DNA of 64,000 nucleotides, from contig NIVC01003078.1 of NCBI GenBank assembly GCA_002269645.1, positions 36,854 through 100,853 on the forward strand, read 5' to 3'. How positions within the stretch are numbered: the stretch's first letter is position 1; the number at the start of each line of letters is the position of its first letter. This DNA comes from Macrostomum lignano. Its lineage: Eukaryota. A program made the translations under genes and the position numbers. The notes beneath the pieces were generated by a model. It was given only the letters and a program-made list of their open reading frames with translations. It did not search any database and was not told where the DNA came from. Below are positions 115 through 53,337 of this stretch, piece by piece.

Positions 115-261
115 CCTTAGTGAGAGAACATAGGCCTATGTTTTTCTATTGCTGTATGTCTGCTGCAGTGGTTTAGTCTATATAAGGACCAAAAAATCTC
201 TTTGATTCATGAAAAAACGATTTTTTTCGACGAGATAGTTTATTCTGTTAGATTTTAAGTC

Positions 262-1029
262 ATGGACATCGGCGAAGGATATAAACTCCAAATACAGGAG
301 TATGAAGGAGTTTATGTTCATTGCTATCAGAAAATTTTACCGACATGGCAGCACTGCGAGTTTGAAACCTGGAGTCCCCGGCTTCAATTTGAACATCCGT
401 CAGTGGGAGAAGCTCAAGGAGTTGAAGCGATCGCTTGTCAAGGCGGCCTTGGACAAACAGCCAAAGGTTGTCAAACTCGGCTTCGATAAGTTCATCGAAG
501 TGAAAAACGGCATTATCTGGTTAAAGCGATTGCCGGAGGACTGCTGCGACGAGTTTCTTAAGCGGAACACCGTGCCGCTGACACCGCCGCTGTGGCGAAA
601 GCTGTGGCAGTACGCGGATTGGATCGACGAGCAGCTATCGGCTCCACGTGAGATTTCCGATGTATACGAGCTGGAGTCGGGATCTTCCTCCAACAGCATC
701 GAAAATGAAGACGGTGCTGGCGAAAACGCGAAGAGACCAAGCCGGTAGTGAAGGCGGAGGACGATGCTCCTGCTGCTGCTGGCGATGTGGCTGGCATGCC
801 ATCCAATCTGCAAATCGACACAGCGTTTGCCACTTCAACGCCTCTGCAACTGACCAAGCCAGCAGCTGGAGCGATTCCTCGGCAGGACACTGATCTGCAA
901 GAGGACCCAGTCTGGTACCAGTTCCGAGCTCAAGCAGCCGCCGCTGAGAACGCCAGGAAACGCAAGCAGCCGCCGTTCGCTCTGCGCAGATTGGATGCCA
1001 TGAAGCTGCCCAGGCCGTGCTTCGACTGA
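262..1029 (+). CDS. Tandem PC4 (p15/Sub1-like ssDNA-binding/coactivator) domain protein with low-complexity C-tail; frameshifted at ~310 and probably ~737
   Basis: Joining ORF 262 (MDIGEGYKLQIQEYEG) to ORF 302 (FMFIAIRKFY...LKPGVPGFNLNIRQWEKLKE) gives the PC4 pattern (human [24 protein letters not shown]...[20 protein letters not shown]). A second weaker copy follows (LGFDKFIEV...VPLTPPLWRKL...IDEQL). ORF 748-1029 joins if one C is added at cc737-738. Confidence 0.72.
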
Positions 1030-1196
1030 TTGCAGACCCTCTGACATTGAGACAAACTCTGTGCTACGAGCTTTTATCCAGACCTGCTTTCCATCTCTTT
1101 GTTTGAAAATAAAAAATATATGCTTGCTTTCACATGCGCTATACATTTTCAATGTCTTAAGAAAACCTAAAAAAAAATGTTTCTTTGTTTCTGAAA

Positions 1197-2262
1197 ATGG
1201 AAAAAATTTATTTCAACCAAATCAGCCTGCGAGCTATTGCAGTTCTTCAAAACTGCAACCTGAACTGCGAAAAAGAGGCGAGCATATTGGAGTCAAGAGC
1301 ATTGAGCAGTGGCTAAGTCAGCAGCCAGTACACACTCTGCATAAGCCAGCTAGAGTACGATTTCCAAGGGCGCCAATAATAGTGAGGGCCATTGATGATC
1401 AGTGGGAGATGGATCTGGTGGAAATGATTCCGTTTGCAAAGTATAATCGCGGGCATAAATACATTCTCACCTGCATTGATGTTTTGTCTAAATTTGCAAT
1501 GGCCAGAGCACTGAAGTCTAAGAGCGCGGCAGAAGTGAAATCTGCGTTTGAGAGCATGCTGAAGAGCTCAAAGCGGCAGCCGCGCACTGTCCGCACAGAT
1601 CAGGGAAAGGAGTTTGTCAACGCAATTTTTCGCCAGTTCTGCATAGACCGGGGGATTCTGGCGTTTCCAACTAGCAGTGAGCACAAAGCAGCCATAATTG
1701 AAAGATGGAATCGAACTTTAAAAAGCAAGATGTGGCGTTACTTTACTCACAACAGCACTCTACAATGGCTTGATGTGCTGCCTAAACTGGTCAAGTCCTA
1801 TAACAATACTTTCCACAGAAGCATCAAGACTACACCAATGAATGTCAGCAAAGCAAACGAGACTGAAGTGTGGATGAACCTTTATGATGGGAAAGCGATT
1901 GAGACAGTTGAGAAACTGAGAAAACCGAAGTTCTGTGAAAACCAATCAGTGCGGATTTCCAATGCACCCAGACTCTTCAGGAAGGGATACAAGGCGAACT
2001 GGAGCGAGGAGGTGTACACCATAGTGTTTAGGGCACCAAAGCATTATCCCTACATGTACAGGATTCGAGACATGAAGGGGGAAGACATAGAGGCCTCTTC
2101 CACGAGCATGAGCTGCAAGCTGTTCCGGACTCGCAGCGGCTGTATGTAATCGAGAAGGTTCTGAAGACTGAGAAGCGGAAGGGAAAGATCCGATATCTCG
2201 TCAAGTGGGCCGGCTACAAGTCCACTGACTGGGTGGATGAGAAGGACTTAAGAAAAGTGTAA
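1197..2262 (+). CDS. Polinton retroviral-type (rve) DDE integrase with C-terminal chromodomain; -1 frameshifts at ~1218 and ~2098
   Basis: HTLHKPAR..F, catalytic QWEMDLV / RTDQGKEF / IIERWNRTLK, KGYKANWSEEVY. The shifted frame continues FHEHELQ...YVIEKVLKTEKRKGKIRYLVKWAGYKSTDWV (chromodomain) to TAA 2260-2262. The repaired start is MEKIYFN(P)NQPASY at ATG 1197. Confidence 0.93.
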
Positions 2263-2292
2263 GATACCGACATTGTGCAGCCATTCCCAACT

Positions 2293-3101
2293 ATGAGAAG
2301 CATCATCATTTGTAGCGAAAATGCTGAAGGTACTCCTAGTGACTTTCATTTTCACCTGCCTTCACTATTTACTTGGATCGAAATGTGGACTATGAGGCAG
2401 GTCTGGCTGAAATCCATCTGCCTGCTGCATGGTTCAATGTTGACGAGCCTTACTGCTTCACTGTCTCAGATGGAAGAGAGCATGAGGCCCTGGTTCTTCA
2501 ACCCGGACGCTTTGCTAGAGTGGAGGAACTGGTTGAGCGCATGAATGAGCTGCTGGCCAACTCTGAGTCACTGTTCTTCGATGCAATGAGCGAAAGGGAG
2601 TCTGAAATGGAAGCTGATGAGTCCGGTTTAATGGGGCGAAGCAGCGCTAGAGATATTGGCATAAAGTTTGAAATCCAAGAGTTGAGAACGGTAGTGCTCA
2701 ACAACACGGCTCGAGCAGAATTGTTCCTTCCATCAAGTAAAATTCTGCAGTGGCTGGGATTCGGAAACCAGCCTGTGAAGATCCCACCCGGACGGCAAGT
2801 GTCACTCTGCTGCATCGGTTGTCCGCCCACCAACCTGATCAACTTGCACTGCAGCATTGTGGAGCGAACAAACTGTAACTGGAACTCCGTGCTGCGAACT
2901 GTGAGCATGTCATCCGATGTCGAATGGGGCAGCTACATGAGCAAAGTGTTTAAGAAAGCAATATTCTTCCCGATTCAGAAAGCTAATTTTCTACATGGCA
3001 TTAGATTTCAACTGCGTGACATCTTTGGCTACTCACTGACTGCTCGGAGCAGCAGCCCTGTTCTGCTCACAGTTCATATTCGGGAAAGGCTAATACAATG
3101 A
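2293..3101 (+). CDS. Minor capsid protein (penton-like, single jelly roll); -1 frameshift at ~2360
   Basis: N-terminus TPSDFHFHLP-FTIYLD...YEAGLAEIHLPAAWFNV and C-terminus FFPIQK...IRFQLRDIFG...VLLTVHIR match Polinton minor capsid motifs; located between integrase and major capsid. Confidence 0.8.
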
Positions 3102-3508
3102 ACTACCAACAGCTGATTCGTCAGTATTCAGGGACTCTGGCAGGAAGCCAAAAGCCGGCGCTCTATGGCTGTGGGAGTTTTCCAGGAATCATGACTTACC
3201 AGCCTCCTCCAGAAGCTTCCACAAAGTCAATATCGCTATCAAAGCCAGGGCATACCACCGCCAGCGGTAGCAGCAGCAACAGCAGAAGCAATAGAAACAG
3301 ACCAAAGCAGCGACTAGTCAAACAGGGCAGTAAGAAGCAGACAAAAAAGAAGAAAAAGAGTAAGACGGAGAAATCACCGAAAAGAAGCCAGTCAGGGCGA
3401 AATAAACCTAAGAAAGGGAGGTCTAAAACTCAAAGCAAGAAAACAGGCAAAGGAAAGCAAAAAGTGAGCAAAAAGACTGTTAAACGTGTTCTGGACTCGC
3501 TCTCATAG
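3098..3508 (+). CDS. Highly basic (Lys/Ser/Arg-rich) putative virion core/DNA-condensing protein
   Basis: Very K-rich C-terminal half; ATGA overlap with the minor capsid stop; immediately upstream of the major capsid gene. Function is inferred. Confidence 0.6.
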   Translation: MNYQQLIRQYSGTLAGSQKPALYGCGSFPGIMTYQPPPEASTKSISLSKPGHTTASGSSSNSRSNRNRPKQRLVKQGSKKQTKKKKKSKTEKSPKRSQSGRNKPKKGRSKTQSKKTGKGKQKVSKKTVKRVLDSLS

Positions 3509-3510
3509 CA

Positions 3511-4793
3511 ATGGCTTACGGATTCAACCCGAGACTCGATTTGTTCAAGTCCCCCGTGCTGCAGACTGCCATTGAAAAATCCACATATGTTGATATTCAC
3601 CCCGTGAACTCTATTGCTACTAACTCACCTATTGAATTCGACTGTCATCCATCGGCTGATGAGTACACTGATCTGCTGAGCTCATTCCTGTATATTCGCT
3701 GTCGCCTAGTCCGGCTTGGCGGGGCTTTGATGAGGGAGGAGGTTCGAAATGCCGATGGAGTTGTCACTGAGCGCAGAGACAGTGGGGTGCACCCAGAAAA
3801 CTTTGTCCTGTCTACGGCATTCTCAGATGTAATCGTGAGCATCAACCAGCGCATTGTATCAGGTGGAGACCAGCTCTACCCCTACCATGCCTACCTAAAA
3901 GCTCTCATGAGCTCATCCGATGCTCAGCAGTTAAAGTTCTACCCCGCCGGATTCCTGGAACCCGAAACTGCTGCTGAGGGGCATGCCGAGAGACACAGGG
4001 AGTCCCGCTGGGTGGAGTATGCGGGACCACTGCTCAGCGACATTTTCCAGTGTCCTGTTCTGCTGCTGAACAATTTACACCTGCACATCAAGCTGATGCC
4101 CAGCGATACTGCATTCGCCATCCGAACCCCAGATGAGAACAACACAGCCTACCGAATGGAAATCTCCCACTGCATTCTGAACCTGCGCCGAGTCAAAGTG
4201 GCGCCTCACATCAGCCTGGCGCATGAGCAGGGACTGACCAATCAGAACGCACTTTACCCCATCGAGCGAACCGAAATGCAAAACTTTATTCTACCCAGGG
4301 AATTCAGTCAAAAAACATTGAAGGATTCACCCATGGCAAACTGCCGAAGTTCGTTATGCTGGTCTTCGTGAACCACCGAGCCTTCAATGGCCATCACCAT
4401 TCCAGCCCCTTCGAGTTCCAGAGCTTCAACCTCAGCCAGCTAGCACTAAAGAAAGGTGGTGAAGCCATGTGCCACGCTGCATTTGCACCTGAGAATAATT
4501 CATTCGTGAGAGAGTACTTGCACTACCTGAAAAGCTGTCAGTCAGCCAGCCCTACCAACTCGGTTCCGTGGGTCCCCTACCAGTTGTTCTCCAACGGCAA
4601 CACAGCTTTCGCATTCGATCTCACGCCTGAGGGAGCGGCCCTGTGGTACGGACAGAAGGAGGGCAATTTGCGGCTGGAGATTCGCTTCCGACAGGCCCTG
4701 GAGGAGCCTGTATCTCTGATTGTTATGTGCCTGTATGACTCACTGATTGAGGTCACCAAGCACAGGGAGATTCTGCTAGATTTTCCATCCTAG
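3511..4793 (+). CDS. Major capsid protein (double jelly roll, PY/hexon-like); -1 frameshift at A-run ~4310-4315
   Basis: LDLFKSPVLQTAIEKSTYVDIHP...PIEF...YTDL; YPYHAYL; KLPKFVMLVFVNHRAFNG...PFEFQ; FAFDLTP; GNLRLEIRF...SLIEV. All are typical Polinton MCP motifs. Confidence 0.92.
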
Positions 4794-4816
4794 GAGTACG
4801 CTGGCGCAACGCTAAT

Positions 4817-5329
4817 ATGGATGCTTTTCAACTGCTTAAACTGGCTAAAAGCTTTTTGCCACAAAATAACTGTTTAATTATTGTCTTGAATTCAATAAAT
4901 AAAACATCTTATGCTTTAAACTTTATTCAGCGAGCAACTCTCAAAAGAAATTTATCTCGATGTAAGTTTATTTTCTTTCTGCTTCAGTACAGCTCATCCT
5001 TCGGTCACTGGGTGGTTTGTTATGCTGATAAGGAGAATTCCATAGAACTCTTTAACTCTCTGGGCTGGGACTCCAGCACTTTAGAGATCATTCACAGAGC
5101 ACTGAAATCCTTTTGGTATTCTCCATTCTACTTACGTAGCAATGTGAATCGAATTCAGAGCTGCAACTCTGCTAAATGCGGTTTGTTCTGTCTCTTGTTT
5201 GCCTATCAAAAGTTTCGTTTCAAGCGCTCGTTTGAGTGGGTTCTGCGGCACCTCCATGCAAATCAGCAGAGCCACTTGAATGAAAGAATTCTGCAAAGGT
5301 TTGAGAGTTGCTTAAGAAAAAAAATTTAA
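4817..5329 (+). CDS. Adenain-like cysteine protease (virion maturation protease)
   Basis: GHWV (His), F[N]SLG, RIQS (oxyanion Gln), CGLFC (Cys); lies between MCP and ATPase. Confidence 0.85.
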   Translation: MDAFQLLKLAKSFLPQNNCLIIVLNSINKTSYALNFIQRATLKRNLSRCKFIFFLLQYSSSFGHWVVCYADKENSIELFNSLGWDSSTLEIIHRALKSFWYSPFYLRSNVNRIQSCNSAKCGLFCLLFAYQKFRFKRSFEWVLRHLHANQQSHLNERILQRFESCLRKKI

Positions 5330-5366
5330 TTAGATTTTAAAAATCAAGAATTTAGCTCAACAGGCA

Positions 5367-6020
5367 ATGGAAACACGTGAGCGGATAAACTGTTATGATG
5401 TGCGCCTGCGACAGGGAAGCTGCATGATTGTCAGCGGGCCTACAAATGCAGGAAAGACAACCTTCGTGAAACATCTGATACAATACAAGGATGTCATGTT
5501 TGATGTGAAGCCTGGGAGAGTTCTGTGGTACTACGGGATTTCACAAGCAGCACACTCTGAGCTCAGCAGTCTCGGCGTGCACCTGCAGCAGGGATTTCCC
5601 AGCAGTATCGAGACCGCACTGAGACCCAATGACCTGGTTGTATTTGATGACCTGATTGAAGAAACTTCCAATTCTGCTGCAATGCGAAATGTTTTCACTG
5701 GAATTGCCCATCATTTGCCCTGCTTTCTGGTTATGCTCACCCAAAATGTATTTTTTAAAGGGAAGGAGTTGCGAACAATGAGTCTGAATGCGATGTACTT
5801 TGTGATCATGAAGAACCCCAGAGACCAGCTGCAGATTGCAGCGCTGGGCAGGCAGTGCTTTGCTGAGAAGCCCGGCTTTCTGCTGTCAGTGTTCAAGCAC
5901 GTGACATCGCACGGCAGGGGAGCCTACCTGCTCCTGGATTTTCACCCTTCCACCCCTGATGAGCTGCGCGTCCGGGCTCGAATCCTGCCCAATCAGCGAC
6001 CCCACCTTGTTTACACTTAA
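5367..6020 (+). CDS. Genome-packaging ATPase (A32/FtsK-HerA superfamily)
   Basis: Walker A GPTNAGKT, Walker B LVVFDD, HH..C...LTQN, KNPRD, YLLLD.HP.T...LRVR. Confidence 0.95.
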   Translation: METRERINCYDVRLRQGSCMIVSGPTNAGKTTFVKHLIQYKDVMFDVKPGRVLWYYGISQAAHSELSSLGVHLQQGFPSSIETALRPNDLVVFDDLIEETSNSAAMRNVFTGIAHHLPCFLVMLTQNVFFKGKELRTMSLNAMYFVIMKNPRDQLQIAALGRQCFAEKPGFLLSVFKHVTSHGRGAYLLLDFHPSTPDELRVRARILPNQRPHLVYT

Positions 6021-6067
6021 GAATAACAGCCGAGATTTCGCCATTTGTTCTATATTCTGCAACACTA

Positions 6068-6384: not shown

Positions 6385-7098
6385 GTTCTCAGAGATGGTT
6401 CTGATCCCCAAGTCAGAGTACGACATGCTCACACAGAATTTGAAGCCAGTCGAGTCTGAACTCGACACTGCTGTGAGATATGCGCAGAGGAAATGCAATG
6501 ATATTTTGCTTGCCGAGGATTGCCCAGACGATGTGAAAGCTGCCATGTACCATGATGCGATGAAGAGTTTGCTGGCCAAGCGCAAGCGGACTGGAAAGGA
6601 TGGTGCGGTACCTGCGAGTGATGCAAAGATGCTGAAAACAGATATTGCACCAGCAGCTGGGGGGAAAAGATCACCCAATCCGTGCCGCAGAAGTTTAAAG
6701 CGAGAGCCCGCAGTCTATGGGCCATCCTATCTGGCAATCCCTCTCTGATTCAGGTGTCCGAAAATGGCGAGGCGCAAATTTCTGGGAAGACAATACCCTC
6801 CTCAAACATCCTGGATTTGTTTCACAGTGCGGTGAGGGATTCGAAATGTGCCAACGAGCCGGTAGGCTGGAGTGAGTTTGTCTCATTGCTTCAAGACAAA
6901 AAGCTTAACATCCCAGCTTCGGCTATAGGAAAGTCAGTAAGGCAGCTAATTTCTAAACCGGCTGTTTCTCCAGAGGCCACCCCTGCACATCATACAGTTA
7001 AGGGATTCGGGAGTGGGAGAGCCTGGCTACAGCTGAGCAGGAAAAAAAACTATTTAAGAAGGGGAACTGAGTCGGCTTCCCGACATCTTGCGTCTTGA
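6377..7098 (+). CDS. Conserved Polinton hypothetical protein (PZ-like class, label uncertain); -1 frameshift at G-run 6659-6664
   Basis: N-terminal MVLIP and C-terminal GE..ISGKTIPSSNILDL...P.GW.EF...L...NIP.S.IG motif, typical of Polinton core ORFs. Confidence 0.7.
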
Positions 7099-7110
7099 AA
7101 CCATCCGATC

Positions 7111-7628
7111 ATGAACTATATTGACTTCCAAGGCTTCCCACGCGAGAGATCGAGCAGAGATTTCGTTGTGAAGGAGCTGGCCATTGCCCAAGTCCGGGCT
7201 GGCAGTTACCATATCACTCATCACGTGTACGCCTCTCCGTTCTCATGGGAGAGAATCTCACCTGAGATGCAAGTGCATTACAGAAAGCTCTCAAAGAATT
7301 TGCATCATTTCAAGTGGACAGATGGATCTCGACCGTACATGCATTTGGCAAATGACATTCTAAACATTGCTTACGGTCCCACCTGGACAAGCGGGGTGAA
7401 GAAGTCCATCTTTCTGACTGAGCTGCTTGGCAGACAGGTGTACAACCTAGAGGATCTGGGATCACCTTTGATTCAAGCATCTGATACTGGTTGCGCAGTG
7501 AAAAATGTATTACTGTACTACAACTGGCTGAAACCGAAGTTCTGTATCAACTTAAGAAGCGAGGTGTGCCCGCACCACTCAAAAGCTCGCAAAGACAGTA
7601 CCACAGGCAGAAAGGACTCTCTAAATGA
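7111..7628 (+). CDS. DEDD/DnaQ-like (RNase H fold) nuclease-family protein; probable -1 frameshift at ~7532, stop overlapping the TBP ATG
   Basis: IDFQGF...FVVKELAI...H.Y.SPF.W...LHHFKWTDGSRPY pattern. One extra A at aaa7531 gives WLKTEVLYQLKKRG...GLSK-TGA (7626-7628), an ATGA overlap with 7625. Confidence 0.55.
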
Positions 7629-8188
7629 GTACACCTGCGACAGCCCTGCGAGTGACCAATCTGGTCGGCGGCGTGGATCTGAGACTTGCTGGAGGCAGGG
7701 GTGCCCAATTGCCTCTGCGGGAACTGGCTCTCAGCATGGCTCATGTCATCTATCGTCCCGTCTGGCCCCGAGTGCTTATCAAGAGGATGCGGAATCCCAG
7801 AGTGACTCTATTGCTCTATCCGACTGGACAACTGAGTATCTGTGGCGCCCGGAGCTACTCGGCCTCAGTCAGGGCCGCTCGTCGCTTCGTGGCTATGCTG
7901 CATCGCAGAGTGCCTGCTCAACTGCTGCCTCATCAAGCTGTGCATGTGCGGATTAAAACTATTACTGCTCATGGGAAGATTGACTTGTGCAGAGCACTTC
8001 CCCTCGCTAATCTTGTAAACACTTTACCAAGTGCTCAATATGAGCCAGAATCATTTTCTGCTTTGATCTGCAAACTAAGCTTCTGCAAATGCCTGCTTTT
8101 TCACAATGGCTCATTTGTTCTCAGTGGTGCAAAAACAATGAGCATGCTAATTTCCGACTTTTCCTTGCTTGTCCGTTTTCTGTGCTAA
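7625..8188 (+). CDS. TATA-box binding protein (TBP)-like protein, core domain only, Polinton-encoded
   Basis: Two TBP half-repeats: VTNLVG..DL; YRPVWPRVLIKRMRNPRVTLLLYPTGQLSICGARS..SVRAARRF and QYEPESFSALICKL...CLLFHNGSFVLSGAK. These align to cellular TBP [36 protein letters not shown] and SYEPELFPGLIYRM...LLIFVSGKVVLTGAK. Confidence 0.9.
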   Translation: MSTPATALRVTNLVGGVDLRLAGGRGAQLPLRELALSMAHVIYRPVWPRVLIKRMRNPRVTLLLYPTGQLSICGARSYSASVRAARRFVAMLHRRVPAQLLPHQAVHVRIKTITAHGKIDLCRALPLANLVNTLPSAQYEPESFSALICKLSFCKCLLFHNGSFVLSGAKTMSMLISDFSLLVRFLC

Positions 8189-8907
8189 TAATAACCATAT
8201 GTTTCAACAATTAAATAAAAAGACGACAGCTGAACAAAAATATAATAATTTGCATGCATATACCACGTATTAAGATGCGTGCATTTTAATCAATATACCT
8301 GAAAATCAGACTTCGATCGACTTTTTCTTTATTTTCAAAACTGAAATCGCAATATTAGTTTGAGTATAGAAAATTTAATCAGACCACCACCAACTCAAGA
8401 AAAAAAGCACACCCATCACTCAGATTATGCACTGCTAAGACAAAAACGAACAAGAACTAGCAGAAATGAAAAAGGAAGCAAATATTTTTCAGATAATCAT
8501 TGGATAATGGTTACAAAAAATATGAGTAGCAAAGCTAGCAAAGATAAAAAAGGACAGTAACTCAGTTCATTCAATTGTGCAAAAATTCAAGGATAATAAA
8601 AAAGGGGAAAGCCAGACCAATATGCCGCAAATTATTCCAACATGGCTTTCACAAGTTCGTATTGAAATAAATCTGGAACAACTCAACTCGAAAATGTTAC
8701 GCTCAGTTAGTTGCTTAGAGACTACAAATATGTAACTAACTGAATTGGCTCTATTCGTTCCAGCATTGTCATTATCATCATCATCCATCATTATCATCAT
8801 CATCCATCATCATCATTCAGATTAATTAAACCACAGAAACAATTCATGGAGTACATAAGTAAAAGTCAATAAATTTCAACGCCAAGGTTACACAGATGTG
8901 CAAAGCA

Positions 8908-11900
8908 TCACTCTAAGCAGTCCGCTGTCCTTTTCGGACTACCCCTGATTAACAGCTGAAAGTGGCCGAACGGAAGACTTGAGTTCGAGCCAGTCCACGC
9001 TCGCTTGTCCTCCCAGATACTGAGAGCGAGCTTACGTTGCTCAATGGTGAAAACGCGATGTTTCTCACTTCCAATTCGACGAACAGTGAGCGACAGCTTT
9101 GAAGCCCCCTTGAAAATCTTGACATAGTCGTCGTGGGAGACTTCATTCTTCAGCACGCTTCGCTGGATGCCTTTTGCTTTTGCTTTGCATGCCGCCGAGC
9201 TTTCAGCGAGGAAAGAATAGAGCTTGGGCCTTAGCAGCACCCACTCAATCTGTTGCAGTCCACCAGCTTCATCTTTAATGCAGCCTAGCTTGGCCTTTAG
9301 CCGATTCGAGAAGAGAGGATGATTAGTGAAAAAATTGGAGGTGTCCAAGAGGCCTTCGGCATGCAGGATTGGCAGCACTTCTCTCTGCAAACTAAGGTTC
9401 TCTAAGCTCAAAAACAACGAGTCTGTATCGCCACCGCAAACTCGAACTCTTGCTCCATCACGGAATTCTAGCATGGGTTTTATTTTGTCATAGTAAAGTC
9501 GATACATGATGATCTTGGAGCGATCTAGAACACACTGCCCCATGAAGATTGGGCGATCAAGAGTTACTTCGTGCTTTTGAAGCTCAAAGATGCTGAGTGA
9601 CGGTGTAATGATTGTGAATGATGCGACATTTGGTTGAGAGAAACAGTCTTGGCTTTTTTCTTGTCAGTACACACTCTGATGTCCCGCCGCTTGCGCACGT
9701 TCTCCATTGTTTTGCCAAACAGGAGTTATTTTTCAGTTTATAGAAATCCTTCTCGAAATCATTTTTCGCCATAGAGCGCTTCTCGCTATTCATCTTAATG
9801 TAGTCCGCGAAGACAGGTTCTTGCCTGAATTCGATCATCCTGTGGAGCCCATGCAACTTCATTCCGTGCGATAGATAGAATCGGAGAGCAGACGAGTGCA
9901 GTACATAGGAAAACTTGTTGTGGCATGTGAGCATTAATTTTTGTACTCCACGGTAGCGCGCAACGGTAGGATTCTCAGTCGTGTTCGCGTCGGGCTGCTG
10001 CTGCTGATGATGATGAGAATGATCATTGTCATGTTGAAGCAGTACCCATAATTCTCGCATGTACTGCGGAAATTCTTCGAAATTCGGACACCTTTTCTCT
10101 GGGGCGAATGGAAGATCCTCCGTTGCCGTGTGGATTTCGGCTGGGTAGAGCAAATCCGCTTCGACAAGGTAGCCGATTGGAGCGTCATCATCCAGGGAAA
10201 GAAAGCGGCACTCGGACCAGGAGCACAGCTCCTCTTGACTGAGCCAGCGAAAGCCGCCAACAGGTAGGGGCATTGTGAGCGCATGACCATAAAGGTTATT
10301 AGCATCAACAGCCAGTAAACTCCTACCTGCTGGTTCATTATCATCATCACTACTTTCGCTCTGGACATGATGTACATTGACAAAAGACATTCCACCCCGA
10401 ATTCCTTTCTCAAACATTTTATACATCTCGAGGTCAGTTAGCAGTTCGATCTTGACTTGAGAAGACTTTAGTGCAGAAGCGAATGATAAGCCTGGAGTTG
10501 ACACAAAATGCACCGGATCTAGCTTGTCTTCCTGCAAACTCAGCCTTCGAAACCCTTCAAAGATATCTGCTAGTTGCCTGATGTCCAGCTCCAAGTAGCA
10601 GAGATGTAATCGCGCAATGTTGTAGATTCGAATTCAGTCCAGGCCTTCTGCGCATGCCGATACTCCGCCTCGGTACAGTGGCTGTTGGTGAGTCGGTTAA
10701 AAAAGCTTTCTACTTTTGGTAGTTGGCGATCATCAAGCACATTTAAATTCGAGAGATAATCATACGGGAAAACTCCCTTACTAAACAGTACATCGCTTGA
10801 GAGATTTGGATACTTTGATCGCATCGCATTAGTGATGGGACAGTTGTCCTCCGGCAAGTTCTTAATAAGTTGAGAGAGACTGCTGTGTAGGAATTGCAGT
10901 GAGTCGATGAATTGTAGCGTGAAAAACAGGGGCTTTTTTACGCCATCTTTCTCATACTCATCAATCTGGAACTCGACCCTCATGGAGAGGTACGACTCAG
11001 CAGTTTGGGGGATGACGCTCACCCTCCAACCAGTCATGTCACCCAGCGCAGTTGAGAAAATCAAATGCAGGTCATATCCGCGAAGATTGTGGAAAACTAT
11101 TGGCAAAAATCGCCGTTTCAGCCGAGCAAGCTTGTTACACGAAGCGCAGGCAGCACCCTTGTATTCACCGCTGAGGTGGTCGTGATCCCAGTGCTTGTCA
11201 GAAGATGAAATGAACACTGCATTGCATAAATAGCACTGTGTGGCATCTTGAAAGCTGCGCCTGTTGTCATCACTGTTTCTGTCAGCAATCTGATGACTAA
11301 ACTCGGTATTCCAACCATAAACTTCACGAGCAAGACGTTCGAGTGAGGCCAAAAACTGTTTCACGACAGAATTCGGATTGGGTCCGCTGCAGAGGAAAAC
11401 ATCCTCACTCGGCCTCAGAATTTTGCTGCTCATACCCTCTCTTGGAATAACAATGTAGCCAGCAGCTACAGGTACATGCTCAGTTAACTTGGTGACAGTA
11501 ACTTCTCTTTCAGGCTTCACTGGTTCACGTGGGGTGTTCAGAGCTTCAAAATCTGCGTAGACAACAAATGGGGGACTGATTGTCTTTTCCCAAGCCATGA
11601 ACTGCATTGTGTTGCTACTTGCATCAGGCATGCGCTCCATGATGGCTGGTTTCAGTTGAGGATTGCAGCTGTCTCGATGCTGCTCCAACTCTTCCTGGAA
11701 TCGAAACGGAGAAATGCACTTCTCACACCATTTGCGATTCCTCAGACCTTTTTTGCTGTTCAGGAGCCGGTCCAGGTTCGAAACTGCACACCAGTGTCCA
11801 GTCCCACAATTCTCATCACCACCATCATCATCATCAGCATCATCGGAGCTGGAGTTGCGAAGCAAGAGTAGAGGAATAACCTTGCGAGAGGCACAAATCC

Positions 11901-12764
11901 CAGGAAGAGGCTGGCGAATGACATAGGCCTCATCATCTTCCCAGCTAAAAACTGTGAAACAGATTTCGGAATTATTTTCCTCTATAACGTCTAAATCGGA
12001 AATTGCGACTGGTAGTGCGATGCACTACCAGTTACAGCAGATTATCGATCTGCTGTAACTGGATAGTGCACGATAGTGTTACTCGATTACAGCAGATTAT
12101 CGATCTGCTGTAATCGATCAACTTACAGCAGATCGATTTCATCCAACCATCTGCTGTAAGTTGTTAGTCGATGGCAGGACTTCATCACACCTGGATCTCT
12201 GATGTGCAGGTAAGCGAGACAGGCAAACAGAAAGCAATTGTTTCCATCGCTCGGTGGGTTGATTATGGCCTTCTTAACGGCCAGCTGATTGGGCAAAGAA
12301 AAATTCGCGCATCGTCCACGATAGTAGCGAATGCGATCAGTGAGGGCAGAGCACAGATCAAAATAGTTGATTTGCTCAACTATCCAACCGCTCCCATTTG
12401 AATTGTAGGCATCAATCTTGCGTTCCAGCTCAGAAAACTGCTGCAACCACCACAATTCAAAATCTCTTAGATCAGAGAGAAGCTCAAGACCGCATGCGAT
12501 CCACTTATCTTCTGCATTGATTACCGCAGCTTCCTTGATTCTCACCATTCTGATGTTGAACTTGAGCTGCGCTCGAATAGAATTATTCTCGGATGAATCG
12601 AATCTCATCTCAACAGCCTGTAGCACTGCAAACTTCGTTGATGATAAAAAATGAAATGGCTCGAGATCTCTTGATGCTGGAGTGAAGCGTCTGACCTGCA
12701 GCGTGTCATCATGCGCACTAGCGTGAATAGCCGAGCTGAATTGAATGCCTGCATGAATTAGCAT
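8908..12764 (-). pseudogene. polB: Protein-primed family B DNA polymerase (with endonuclease VII-like insert), interrupted by a 101-bp insertion (12024-12124) and -1 frameshifts at ~10603, ~9718 and ~9642
   Basis: ExoI VVYADFE, HWDHDHLSGEYKGAACASCN (endo VII), FHNLRGYD, FIDSLQF, KGVFPYDY, IRGG, motif A DANNLYG, motif B KLKNNSC(FG)K, motif C GDTDS, LRPKLYS, KAKGI. The four fragments join into one frame after repair. Confidence 0.93.
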
Positions 12765-12839
12765 GTTGTTGGGTGTACGCGTTTCACTCGGCAGTTAAAA
12801 TTTATAAATCATAATCCTAATTCCACCTCATTATGGTGC

Positions 12840-13797
12840 GGGAATCGGTTAATCAGGAATCAGTGAATCAGGAATCAGTGAATCGGGAATCGGCGAATCA
12901 GGAATCGGTGAATCAGGAATCGGCGAATCGGGAATCGGTGAATCGGGAATCGGCGAATCGGGAATCGGTGAATCGGGAATCGGCGAATCGGGAATCGGTG
13001 AATCGGGAATCGGCGAATCGGGAATCGGTGAATCGGGAATCGGCGAATCGGGAATCGGTGAATCGGGAATCGGCGAATCGGGAATCGGTGAATCGGGAAT
13101 CGGCGAATCAGGAATCGGTGAATCGGTAATCAGTGAATCAGGAATCGGGAATCAGTGAATCGGGAATCGGTGAATCGGGAATCGGTGAATCGGGAATCGG
13201 TGAATCGGGAATCGGCGAATCAGGAATCGGTGAATCGGTAATCAGTGAATCAGGAATCGGGAATCGGTGAATCAGGAATCGGTGAATCAGGAATCGGCGA
13301 ATCGGGAATCGGTGAATCGGGAATCGGCGAATCGGGAATCGGTGAATCGGGAATCGGCGAATCGGGAATCGGTGAATCGGGAATCGGCGAATCGGGAATC
13401 AGTGAATCGGGAATCGGCGAATCGGGAATCGGTGAATCGGGAATCGGCGAATCGGGAATCGGTGAATCGGGAATCGGCGAATCGGGAATCGGTGAATCGG
13501 GAATCGGCGAATCAGGAATCGGTGAATCGGTAATCAGTGAATCAGGAATCGGGAATCAGTGAATCGGGAATCGGGAATCGGGAATCGGTGAATCGGCGAA
13601 TCGGGAATCGGTGAATCGGGAATCGGTGAATCGGTGAATCGAGAATCAGTGAATCGGTGAATCGAGAATCAGTGAATCGGTGAATCGGCGAATCGGGAAT
13701 CGGTGAATCGGCGATTCGGGAATCGGTGAATCGGGAATCAGTGAATCGGTGAATCGGTGAATCGGGAATCGGTGAATCGGCGAATCGGGAATCGGGT
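12840..13797. repeat. Tandem array of GAATC-based 15-bp units (GGGAATCGGTGAATC / GGGAATCGGCGAATC; 30-bp dimer) inside the Polinton
   Basis: Directly visible; produces the spurious RESVN/ESGIG ORFs. Confidence 0.97.
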
Positions 13798-16378: not shown

Positions 16379-16513
16379 CCCCATGGAAATTCCGTGGCTT
16401 TCCCTGCGGCAGAGTCCACCAATGCATTTACATAGGCGCTATGTTTACACACTACAGGCCCGTGGTTTTCCCACGGAAATTCCTGCGGCAGAGTCCACAT
16501 TTCCCCTACTACT
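16379..16513 (-). repeat. Right terminal inverted repeat (~135 bp)
   Basis: Matches 1-114 and ends in TACTACT; contains two copies of CCTGCGGCAGAGTCCAC (16403-16419, 16482-16498). Confidence 0.93.

Positions 16514-23298: not shown

Positions 23299-53337
<30,039 letters not shown>

Follow-up and report, generated by a model that had tools for sequence, protein, structure and literature searches.

The window, by which we mean the whole 64,000-nt stretch of Macrostomum lignano DNA analysed here (contig NIVC01003078.1, positions 36,854 to 100,853), contains a Polinton bounded by terminal inverted repeats (TIRs). The repeat arms lie at 1-114 and 16379-16493; the left arm extends past the window start, with the left end of the element just outside the window, and the right TIR (16379..16513) ends in TACTACT at 16513. 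The copy on contig C84 has TIR ends matching at 40/40 positions and an exact 6-bp duplication, and the copy on C1545 has 40/40 TIR ends and a duplication matching at 5/6. These are the two of five other copies tried in which the target duplication was readable; the remaining three did not yield both ends. On the plus strand the genes run in the order PC4-like, integrase, minor capsid-like, basic protein, major capsid-like, protease, ATPase, a small ORF, exonuclease-like and TATA-binding protein (TBP); PolB lies on the minus strand, convergent with the cluster that TBP ends.

The PC4-like gene (262..748, +; PF02229, E 4e-4, and 8e-5 in copy L032) is in two pieces here and encodes 220-254 aa in unbroken copies; an ordinary TATATAAG lies 5' of it at 179-186 (+). 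A retroviral-type integrase is present as a fragment (1409..2149, +; PF00665, E 2e-14), its length in unbroken copies being 355 aa. The minor capsid-like gene, in two pieces, and the basic protein (2293..3508, +) were recognised by homology to the same genes elsewhere and gave no match in a Pfam search; their names are presumptive and follow from position. The following gene (3511..4793, +), in two pieces here and 427 aa in unbroken copies, likewise gave no Pfam match; it matches metagenome contig L128 (E 4e-9) and is presumably a major capsid gene. An adenovirus-type cysteine protease (4817..5329, +; PF00770, E 4e-5) is followed by a packaging ATPase (5367..6020, +), which is 34% identical to the L128 ATPase, itself a match to Pox_A32 (PF04665). 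Protein-primed PolB (8908..12764, -; PF03175) is in pieces, with a TATAAA ~42 nt before the first of them, and an AATAAA at 8214-8219 (+), judged by its sequence, is the likely poly(A) signal closing the plus strand cluster. The genes broken in the window copy (PC4, integrase, both capsid-like genes and PolB) are unbroken in other copies.

PolB and an rve integrase (both fragmented here), protease, ATPase, capsid-like genes, TIRs with AGT-type ends and the 6-bp duplication correspond to an adintovirus-type Polinton/Maverick. TBP and PC4 are not known to belong to the usual Polinton gene list. A short tandem repeat lies inside the element upstream of PolB (12833-13129), and a 24-nt tandem array of more than 100 units lies outside it (25337-28000).

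The TBP core and the overlapping ORF

The final plus strand gene, inside the TIRs, is an unbroken ORF of 187 aa running from ATG to TAA (7625-8188, +). It matched PF00352 in two stretches (E 1.6e-21), and all 35 matches among PDB sequences were TBP or TBP fusions (best E 1.7e-16). An AlphaFold2 model (pLDDT 84.6) superposed on solved TBPs with TM 0.71-0.78 (best E 3e-13), the values for the cellular TBPs 1cdw, 1ytb and 1ais being 0.77-0.78. With the selection described below, this confirmed that the ORF encodes a real, selected, two-lobed TBP homologue, and the description in an earlier note on this DNA, an intact TBP core ending the virion operon within the TIRs, holds. The same note called the gene intronless; the frame is indeed single, but so are those of the host TBP and TRF2, and the trait therefore carries no weight. 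The coding regions of these two host genes (L051, L052; contigs C70, C350) are present in three assembly copies each.

Compared with cellular TBP, the element protein is 24-28% identical, lacks the N-terminal extension, has a 6-residue insert after strand 1 and is multicopy in a mobile element. Element residues were read from alignments against the host TBP, yeast numbering being the host position + 23. As claimed earlier from an alignment by eye, the N-lobe Asn (N12=N69) and the C-lobe Phe pair (F144=F190, F159=F207) are kept, the C-lobe Asn159 has become Thr (T112), and the second N-lobe Phe, F116, has become Tyr (Y65). The first N-lobe Phe had been read as Trp; in our alignments F99 falls on Pro48, and Trp47 stands opposite R98. 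A Phe-to-Trp change is unsupported in this register because Trp47 is His in family 2 while Pro-Arg is kept, and the former assignment was probably one residue off, unless the loop has slipped locally by one residue. Downstream of this position, I103, R105, R107 and P109 are identical and ungapped. The other DNA-face changes are V122S (S71), T124C, V161T and P191S (S145). The canonical set of four Phe and two Asn is thus incomplete, indicating a divergent member of the TBP family and not a canonical TBP.

The residues E140-P-E142, F144, F159, N12 and T112 are invariant in all 14 family-1 and family-2 proteins, and the DNA-face residues N12, T112, I113, Y65, F144 and F159 are invariant across families that are 34% identical. 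In sequence, the acidic C-lobe stirrup (E140/E142=E186/E188) is present in 14/14 of these proteins; passages of PMC7221094 describe the stirrup glutamates of TBP as its TFIIB contact. Polinton-type TBPs share the replacement of Asn159 by Thr or Ser and, mostly, the acidic stirrup, and the family 2 TBP has lost the basic patch on helix 2 that host regulators use. Host TRF2/TBPL1 (L052) resembles the element TBP as a divergent paralogue with an altered Phe set, but it carries F116R and F190H, keeps N159 and forms a separate branch; the element TBP neither groups with it nor shares its substitutions.

Upstream lies a 281-aa ORF (7111..7956, +) with a Ser/Gly/Arg-rich tail, whose N-terminal ~150 aa are putatively DnaQ/DEDDh-like, to judge from a motif and from a weak Maelstrom look-alike (0.87); a Pfam search gave no match. 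The tail overprints, in another frame, the first 332 nt of the TBP gene (7625-7956), which encode the N-lobe. Of the 30 closest copies, 24 have an overprint that runs on to the same stop, and six are broken at a point farther 5'; among 20 more distant stretches, 13 share it. The family 2 overprint uses the same relative frame; beyond the first Asn it extends 122-124 codons in 11 of 14 copies, 83 codons in two and 102 in the last, a count that leaves out three divergent copies. Given the TBP protein, the chance of an open overlapping frame was 0.04 and 0.02 in family 1 and 0.003 in family 2. The content of the tail is not conserved in its own frame, where dN exceeds dS. Because the frame is open beyond chance yet the tail sequence is unconserved, it is the openness of the frame, not its content, that seems to be under selection. 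In the Polinton groups D and H described below, the upstream ORF overlaps the TBP-like frame likewise.

An approximate recombination boundary could be placed at the TBP lobe junction (7925..7956, +) from an identity drop and from dS. Nine of the 17 pairs compared are 94-100% identical up to about +300 and 68-80% identical beyond it, and dS was 0.03-0.19 versus 1.1-1.9; the N-lobe moves with the virion module and the C-lobe with the polymerase side. Few virion modules are paired with many polymerase modules, a pattern of recurrent exchange at the lobe junction. Low N-lobe dS was rejected as proof of dual coding, being mostly due to recombination; against distant lineages dS was 0.47-0.72 versus 0.83-1.15 in the ATPase and exonuclease.

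Copies, families and relatives of the element TBP

The element TBP has at least 152 matches in the genome, and about 94 of the 150 listed matches were near full length without a stop and 72-100% identical (counted by eye). The canonical host TBP, to which the element TBP is 29% identical, and TRF2 are separate low-copy genes. Between sub-lineages dN/dS was 0.07-0.34 in both lobes, mostly 0.1-0.3, indicating purifying selection. All 18 family-1 stretches examined have Polinton genes beside TBP, except a degraded copy (L042) that retains only the exonuclease-like neighbour; in two further stretches a C-lobe fragment adjoins the protease and major capsid genes. That the gene is a young retrocopy of the host TBP or a neutral passenger, in favour of which one may note that the host TBP ORF is itself one open frame, has practically no chance of being right: the ORF is not confined to one copy and does not cluster with the host TBP, and the low identity to the latter, dN/dS far below 1, the many stop-free matches and the separate clade in the tree (below) refute a recent retrocopy.

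TBP-like frames were found in nine of the ten Polinton groups sampled in M. lignano. At least ten such groups are present in the genome, many with near-identical copies, which suggests recent activity. Family 2 has about 40 matches, 24 of them near full length, and its TBP is 34-35% identical to that of family 1; the element contains PolB, integrase, capsid-like genes, protease, ATPase, PC4 and 232-nt repeats. A capsid search of the genome exposed further families; of the eight groups sampled (A, B, C, D, E, F/G, H and I), seven have two or more copies with a TBP-like frame. None was present in the single degraded stretch sampled for group I, nor was one seen in the short or damaged stretches on C2158, C1390, C356 and C105. 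In Pfam searches the frames of C, E and G scored above the cut-off, those of B and H just below it, and those of A and D did not match. Profile comparison with TBP gave 96.5% over both lobes for A/B/C/E/G. For D/H, hhalign gave 49.9% over the C-lobe only, and because of this their assignment as TBP is tentative.

The frames of A, B, C, E and G (L186, L187, L199, L189, L174) all begin at the same codon, behind a pyrimidine-rich AG; because this AG resembles a splice acceptor, they are probably spliced. The D and H frames (L160:5481-6014, L170:5710-6300) are very divergent, and their N-lobe Asn is not preceded by an ATG. In family E the TBP-like frame runs stop-free into a deoxynucleoside kinase (PF01712, E 7e-24; L189:1039-2445, -; contigs C297 and C362), as a fusion or a read-through pair. 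Other accessory genes are a Fic domain in H (PF02661, E 8e-14; L160:3165-3944) and a dUTPase in G (PF00692; L174:3965-4498). Families 1 and 2 (window 262-748; L088) and the metagenome loci L122-L126 and L131 carry PC4-like genes alongside TBP, with tandem PC4 domains in L122 and L131; no PC4 match was obtained in families A-H.

A profile search of 1.84 billion proteins returned two more members of the family-1/2 clade (P0009, P0010), to which three Logan proteins also belong. A search prompted by the tree yielded about 30 short (~170 aa) metagenomic TBPs, with Thr at the N159 position in 22/22 aligned. Nine of 14 marine metagenome loci of such proteins have an integrase match, L122 has an integrase start and L131 has PC4; three are below 1.4 kb and had no match to Polinton proteins. 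The L128 contig carries PolB, an A32-type ATPase, integrase, TBP and capsid-like genes. Scans of viral contigs and metagenome contigs with the Macrostomum-type TBP alignment found no relative, scans of viral contigs with alignments A5, A7, P0181 and the ATPase found none, the ATPase had no match in a phage collection, and 17 viral-contig TBPs had no adjoining Polinton genes. The exon-TBP fusion proteins P0006, P0008 and P0011 were left out as apparent products of gene models or indels.

In a 42-row tree, 20 Polinton-type TBPs formed one clade (86/85) apart from cellular TBP and TRF2, nested with five unplaced short TBPs (98/99); branches are long. The union of the Macrostomum and metagenome clades was supported only at 71/91 in an earlier 53-row tree, and a 151-row tree was a quick search. 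The immediate neighbours of the Polinton clade in the tree are five short TBPs that retain Asn159 (P0016, P0058, P0092, P0097, P0110; contigs of 1-26 kb), and their context may reveal the donor. The simplest reading of these sequences would be a single old capture from a eukaryote. The proposal of an old captured TBP agrees with the purifying selection, the 34-35% identity between families, the metagenome relatives and the separate clade. The accompanying remark that TBP is an unusual Polinton gene needs qualification, as the gene is lineage-wide and not a one-off capture, and a TBP label appears in a figure legend of PMC8502044.

Candidate promoter words and residue 122

The hexamer TAAGAA was first noticed by eye in upstream regions. 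Within 100 nt before 45 gene starts in eight elements it ranked first of 4096 hexamers (19 occurrences versus 2.0 expected), a post hoc ranking because the motif had already been seen by eye; ten of the 19 sites come from L128 and none from L130, L131 or L121. In the window, the candidate internal TBP promoter CTTAAGAAG (7551..7559, +) lies within the upstream ORF, 72 nt 5' of the TBP start codon, and is exact in three other sub-lineage copies whose overall identity is 73-74%. TATTTAAGAAG is located 5' of the exonuclease-like ORF (7051..7061, +); its counterparts are TATATAAGAAG and TACATAAGAAG in sister lineages and CTATAAGAAG in family 2. Further TAAGAA words occur on the plus strand at 1158, 2249, 2951, 3331, 3409, 5313 and 6018 (span 1158..6023), of which those at 1158, 2249, 3409, 5313 and 6018 precede the integrase, minor capsid, major capsid, ATPase and small ORF, respectively, with starts taken from unbroken copies.

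Most virion-cluster genes and TBP sit behind a conserved sense-strand CTTAAGAA. In family 1 the word lies 37-56 nt before the integrase, minor capsid, ATPase, small ORF and exonuclease-like genes, 63-72 nt before TBP and 102-108 nt before the major capsid gene; there is none within 120 nt of the protease, the basic protein and one small ORF. The window sites were exact in sister copies at 7/9, 8/9 and 7/9 (hexamer background 21-22%). Sense and antisense words numbered 10:0, 11:0, 6:0 and 12:0 in four elements; for the family-1 copy L032 (10 versus 0), 2.2 were expected. Word counts were 3-5 fold above a third-order model. One of ten words in L032 and three of 12 in L128 fall on stop codons, and some L128 words fall on Arg-Lys-Lys codons. 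A role of TAAGAA as a poly(A)-like end signal is disfavoured because the hexamer precedes the first genes and the cluster ends with AATAAA.

PC4, PolB and ORF 14503 are preceded by ordinary TATATAA/TATAAA or TATTTAAA, and the family 2 TBP gene by an ordinary TATAAAAG. Families A, B, C, E and G have TATAAG[CT]AA, mostly 41-58 nt before the same genes, families D and H have the ordinary TATAAATA, and the L128 word is [CT]GTAAGAA; L130 and L131 have no TAAGAA before genes. The family-1 CTTAAGAA and the L128 CGTAAGAA differ from TATAWAWR at three positions, and TATAAGCAA and TATAAATAA begin with a normal TATA. As a weak control, TAAGAA preceded 2 of 45 listed ORFs on four partial Polinton-like contigs with no TBP match, the remaining ORFs having TATAAA-type words or none.

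To compare position 6 of the word among elements, xxTAA[GA] cores located 25-110 nt before ORFs were counted uniformly. The G:A ratio was 49:23 in 11 elements with Ser, Thr, Gln or Asn at residue 122 and 1:19 in three elements with Ile or Val there; family 2 was weak (3:5). Val122 presumably faces base pair 6, to judge from TBP-DNA structures and from symmetry with Val213. G at position 6 thus appears to covary with a polar residue 122, circumstantially and over about three polar and two hydrophobic lineages that include the tentative D/H. The L128 TBP keeps Pro191, yet its words mostly have C at position 1. For the earlier suggestion of altered promoter specificity, the non-canonical word and this covariation are circumstantial support, binding of the word by the element TBP being our reading of the sequences.

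Role of the element TBP

It is likely that the element brings its own switch for the capsid, packaging and integrase genes, since most of these share a non-standard TATA-like word and the element encodes a TBP. More specifically, we consider it reasonably probable that the element TBP is a late-promoter factor of the element's own, which would read CTTAAGAA-type words and recruit host TFIIB and RNA polymerase II. Taking the words as promoters, we infer an early and a late step. First, PC4, the polymerase and the exonuclease-like gene would be turned on by host TBP through their ordinary TATA boxes. The element TBP would then be made and would read the non-canonical word through a DNA face reshaped by Val122 to Ser, Asn159 to Thr, Pro191 to Ser, Phe116 to Tyr and the loss of Phe99. 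Through the same word it may boost its own gene and switch on the virion cluster (integrase, capsid and packaging genes), with host TFIIB and Pol II presumably recruited via the kept acidic stirrup.

A genome search with PF00382 (TFIIB) gave 15 matches on seven contigs, against ~150 TBP copies, and no element-borne or multicopy TFIIB, a result that a very divergent TFIIB could escape. A predicted complex of the element TBP with one exon-encoded part of host TFIIB, run without alignment and without DNA, scored 0.01, a value that speaks neither for nor against contact. None of the sequencing records carrying the element is listed as RNA, and contigs of four runs cover it evenly.

The TATAAG-type words may be readable by host TBP, and according to the record PDB 1qn5 the G(-26) TATA variant has been solved with wild-type TBP. 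The element TBP could also be a general supplement that binds whatever words host TBP binds and mainly makes the element independent of TFIID, Mot1/NC2 or scarce host TBP, the words being plain Polinton core promoters. The normal TATA at the start of TATAAGCAA and TATAAATAA fits this, as does the loss in family 2 of the basic helix-2 patch, and passages of PMC7221094 report that viral TBP N-lobes evade host regulators. Considering that CTTAAGAA and CGTAAGAA depart from TATAWAWR at three positions, that early-type genes in the same element keep ordinary TATA boxes and that residue 122 covaries with position 6, we regard a general supplement as unlikely.

Without Phe99 and Asn159 the protein may hold DNA less well, and the acidic stirrup is its best kept surface; both would suit a decoy, an idea raised in the earlier note for TFIIA/TFIIB, that binds DNA weakly, soaks up host TFIIB/Brf or TFIIA and dampens host transcription. 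A decoy accounts neither for the element-specific words before virion genes nor for the DNA-face residues that stay invariant between distant families, and we find it quite improbable. PC4 is a single-strand binding protein; it adjoins TBP or shares its element in family 2, L122-L126 and L131, and TBP often adjoins the integrase, so that a role outside transcription might be imagined, in which TBP together with PC4 bends the element ends to aid replication, integration or packaging, a very remote prospect given that the TFIIB stirrup is kept and that the words precede gene starts on the sense strand only.

For the late-promoter factor that we favour, the closest working model is the vTBP of beta- and gamma-herpesviruses, with its polar DNA face and its reading of a non-canonical late word. 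PMC12529657 describes KSHV ORF24 as a 752-aa protein with polar residues at V122/T124/V161, four Phe kept and no acidic TFIIB stirrup, which works on the late word TATTWAA with host Pol II, a Pol II-binding N-domain and five partner vTAs. Compared with ORF24/UL87/BcRF1 as so described, the element TBP is a bare 187-aa core with the stirrup kept and no Pol II-binding N-domain or CTD. A conserved non-canonical word also stands before virion genes of the element, where it would be a candidate late promoter. Giant DNA viruses with a TBP nearly always encode their own TFIIB, and the stirrup Glu is conserved in about 40%, as stated in passages of PMC7221094, where the word 'Polinton' has no occurrence. 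Theirs too is a viral TBP with a diverged N-lobe; on the Polinton side, in contrast, no TFIIB of its own was found and the stirrup is kept. The element TBP is 8-19% identical to the viral TBPs matched in BFVD, and L103 and L104, the two viral TBPs of eukaryote type included in the tree, group with cellular TBP.

A TBP-like gene on a Polinton-like virus or related element is also indicated for the MELD viruses of Starrett et al., where 'TBP' stands as an abbreviation in the Fig. 5 legend, in the section on non-animal datasets (PMC8502044; preprint 10.1101/697771); the likeness is one of legend label. The text searched contains no analysis of TBP, and one supplement file gave no match. A search of openly accessible article text found no study dealing with TBPs of Polintons or with promoter words of this kind. 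Viral TBPs are already known; M. lignano adds many families living together in a single host, the division of genes between ordinary TATA boxes and non-canonical words, and the covariation of residue and base.

As a tentative extension, and a rather less probable one than the late-promoter role itself, each family's TBP may have co-evolved with its own TATA variant, a polar residue 122 pairing with G at position 6, into a private late-transcription code of a large Polinton lineage, the ten families being natural altered-specificity pairs on host TFIIB and Pol II, with recombination at the lobe junction reshuffling the DNA-reading halves. Polintons and adintoviruses have no RNA polymerase, and the question addressed here is how their virion genes are timed and switched on. 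The 187-aa TBP and its short word form a directly testable pair in a laboratory flatworm. If the late-promoter reading is true, the family series would provide natural TBP specificity variants for work on TATA recognition or for orthogonal expression, and small DNA viruses would have reached the herpesvirus solution, a viral TBP with late promoters, more simply, keeping host TFIIB.
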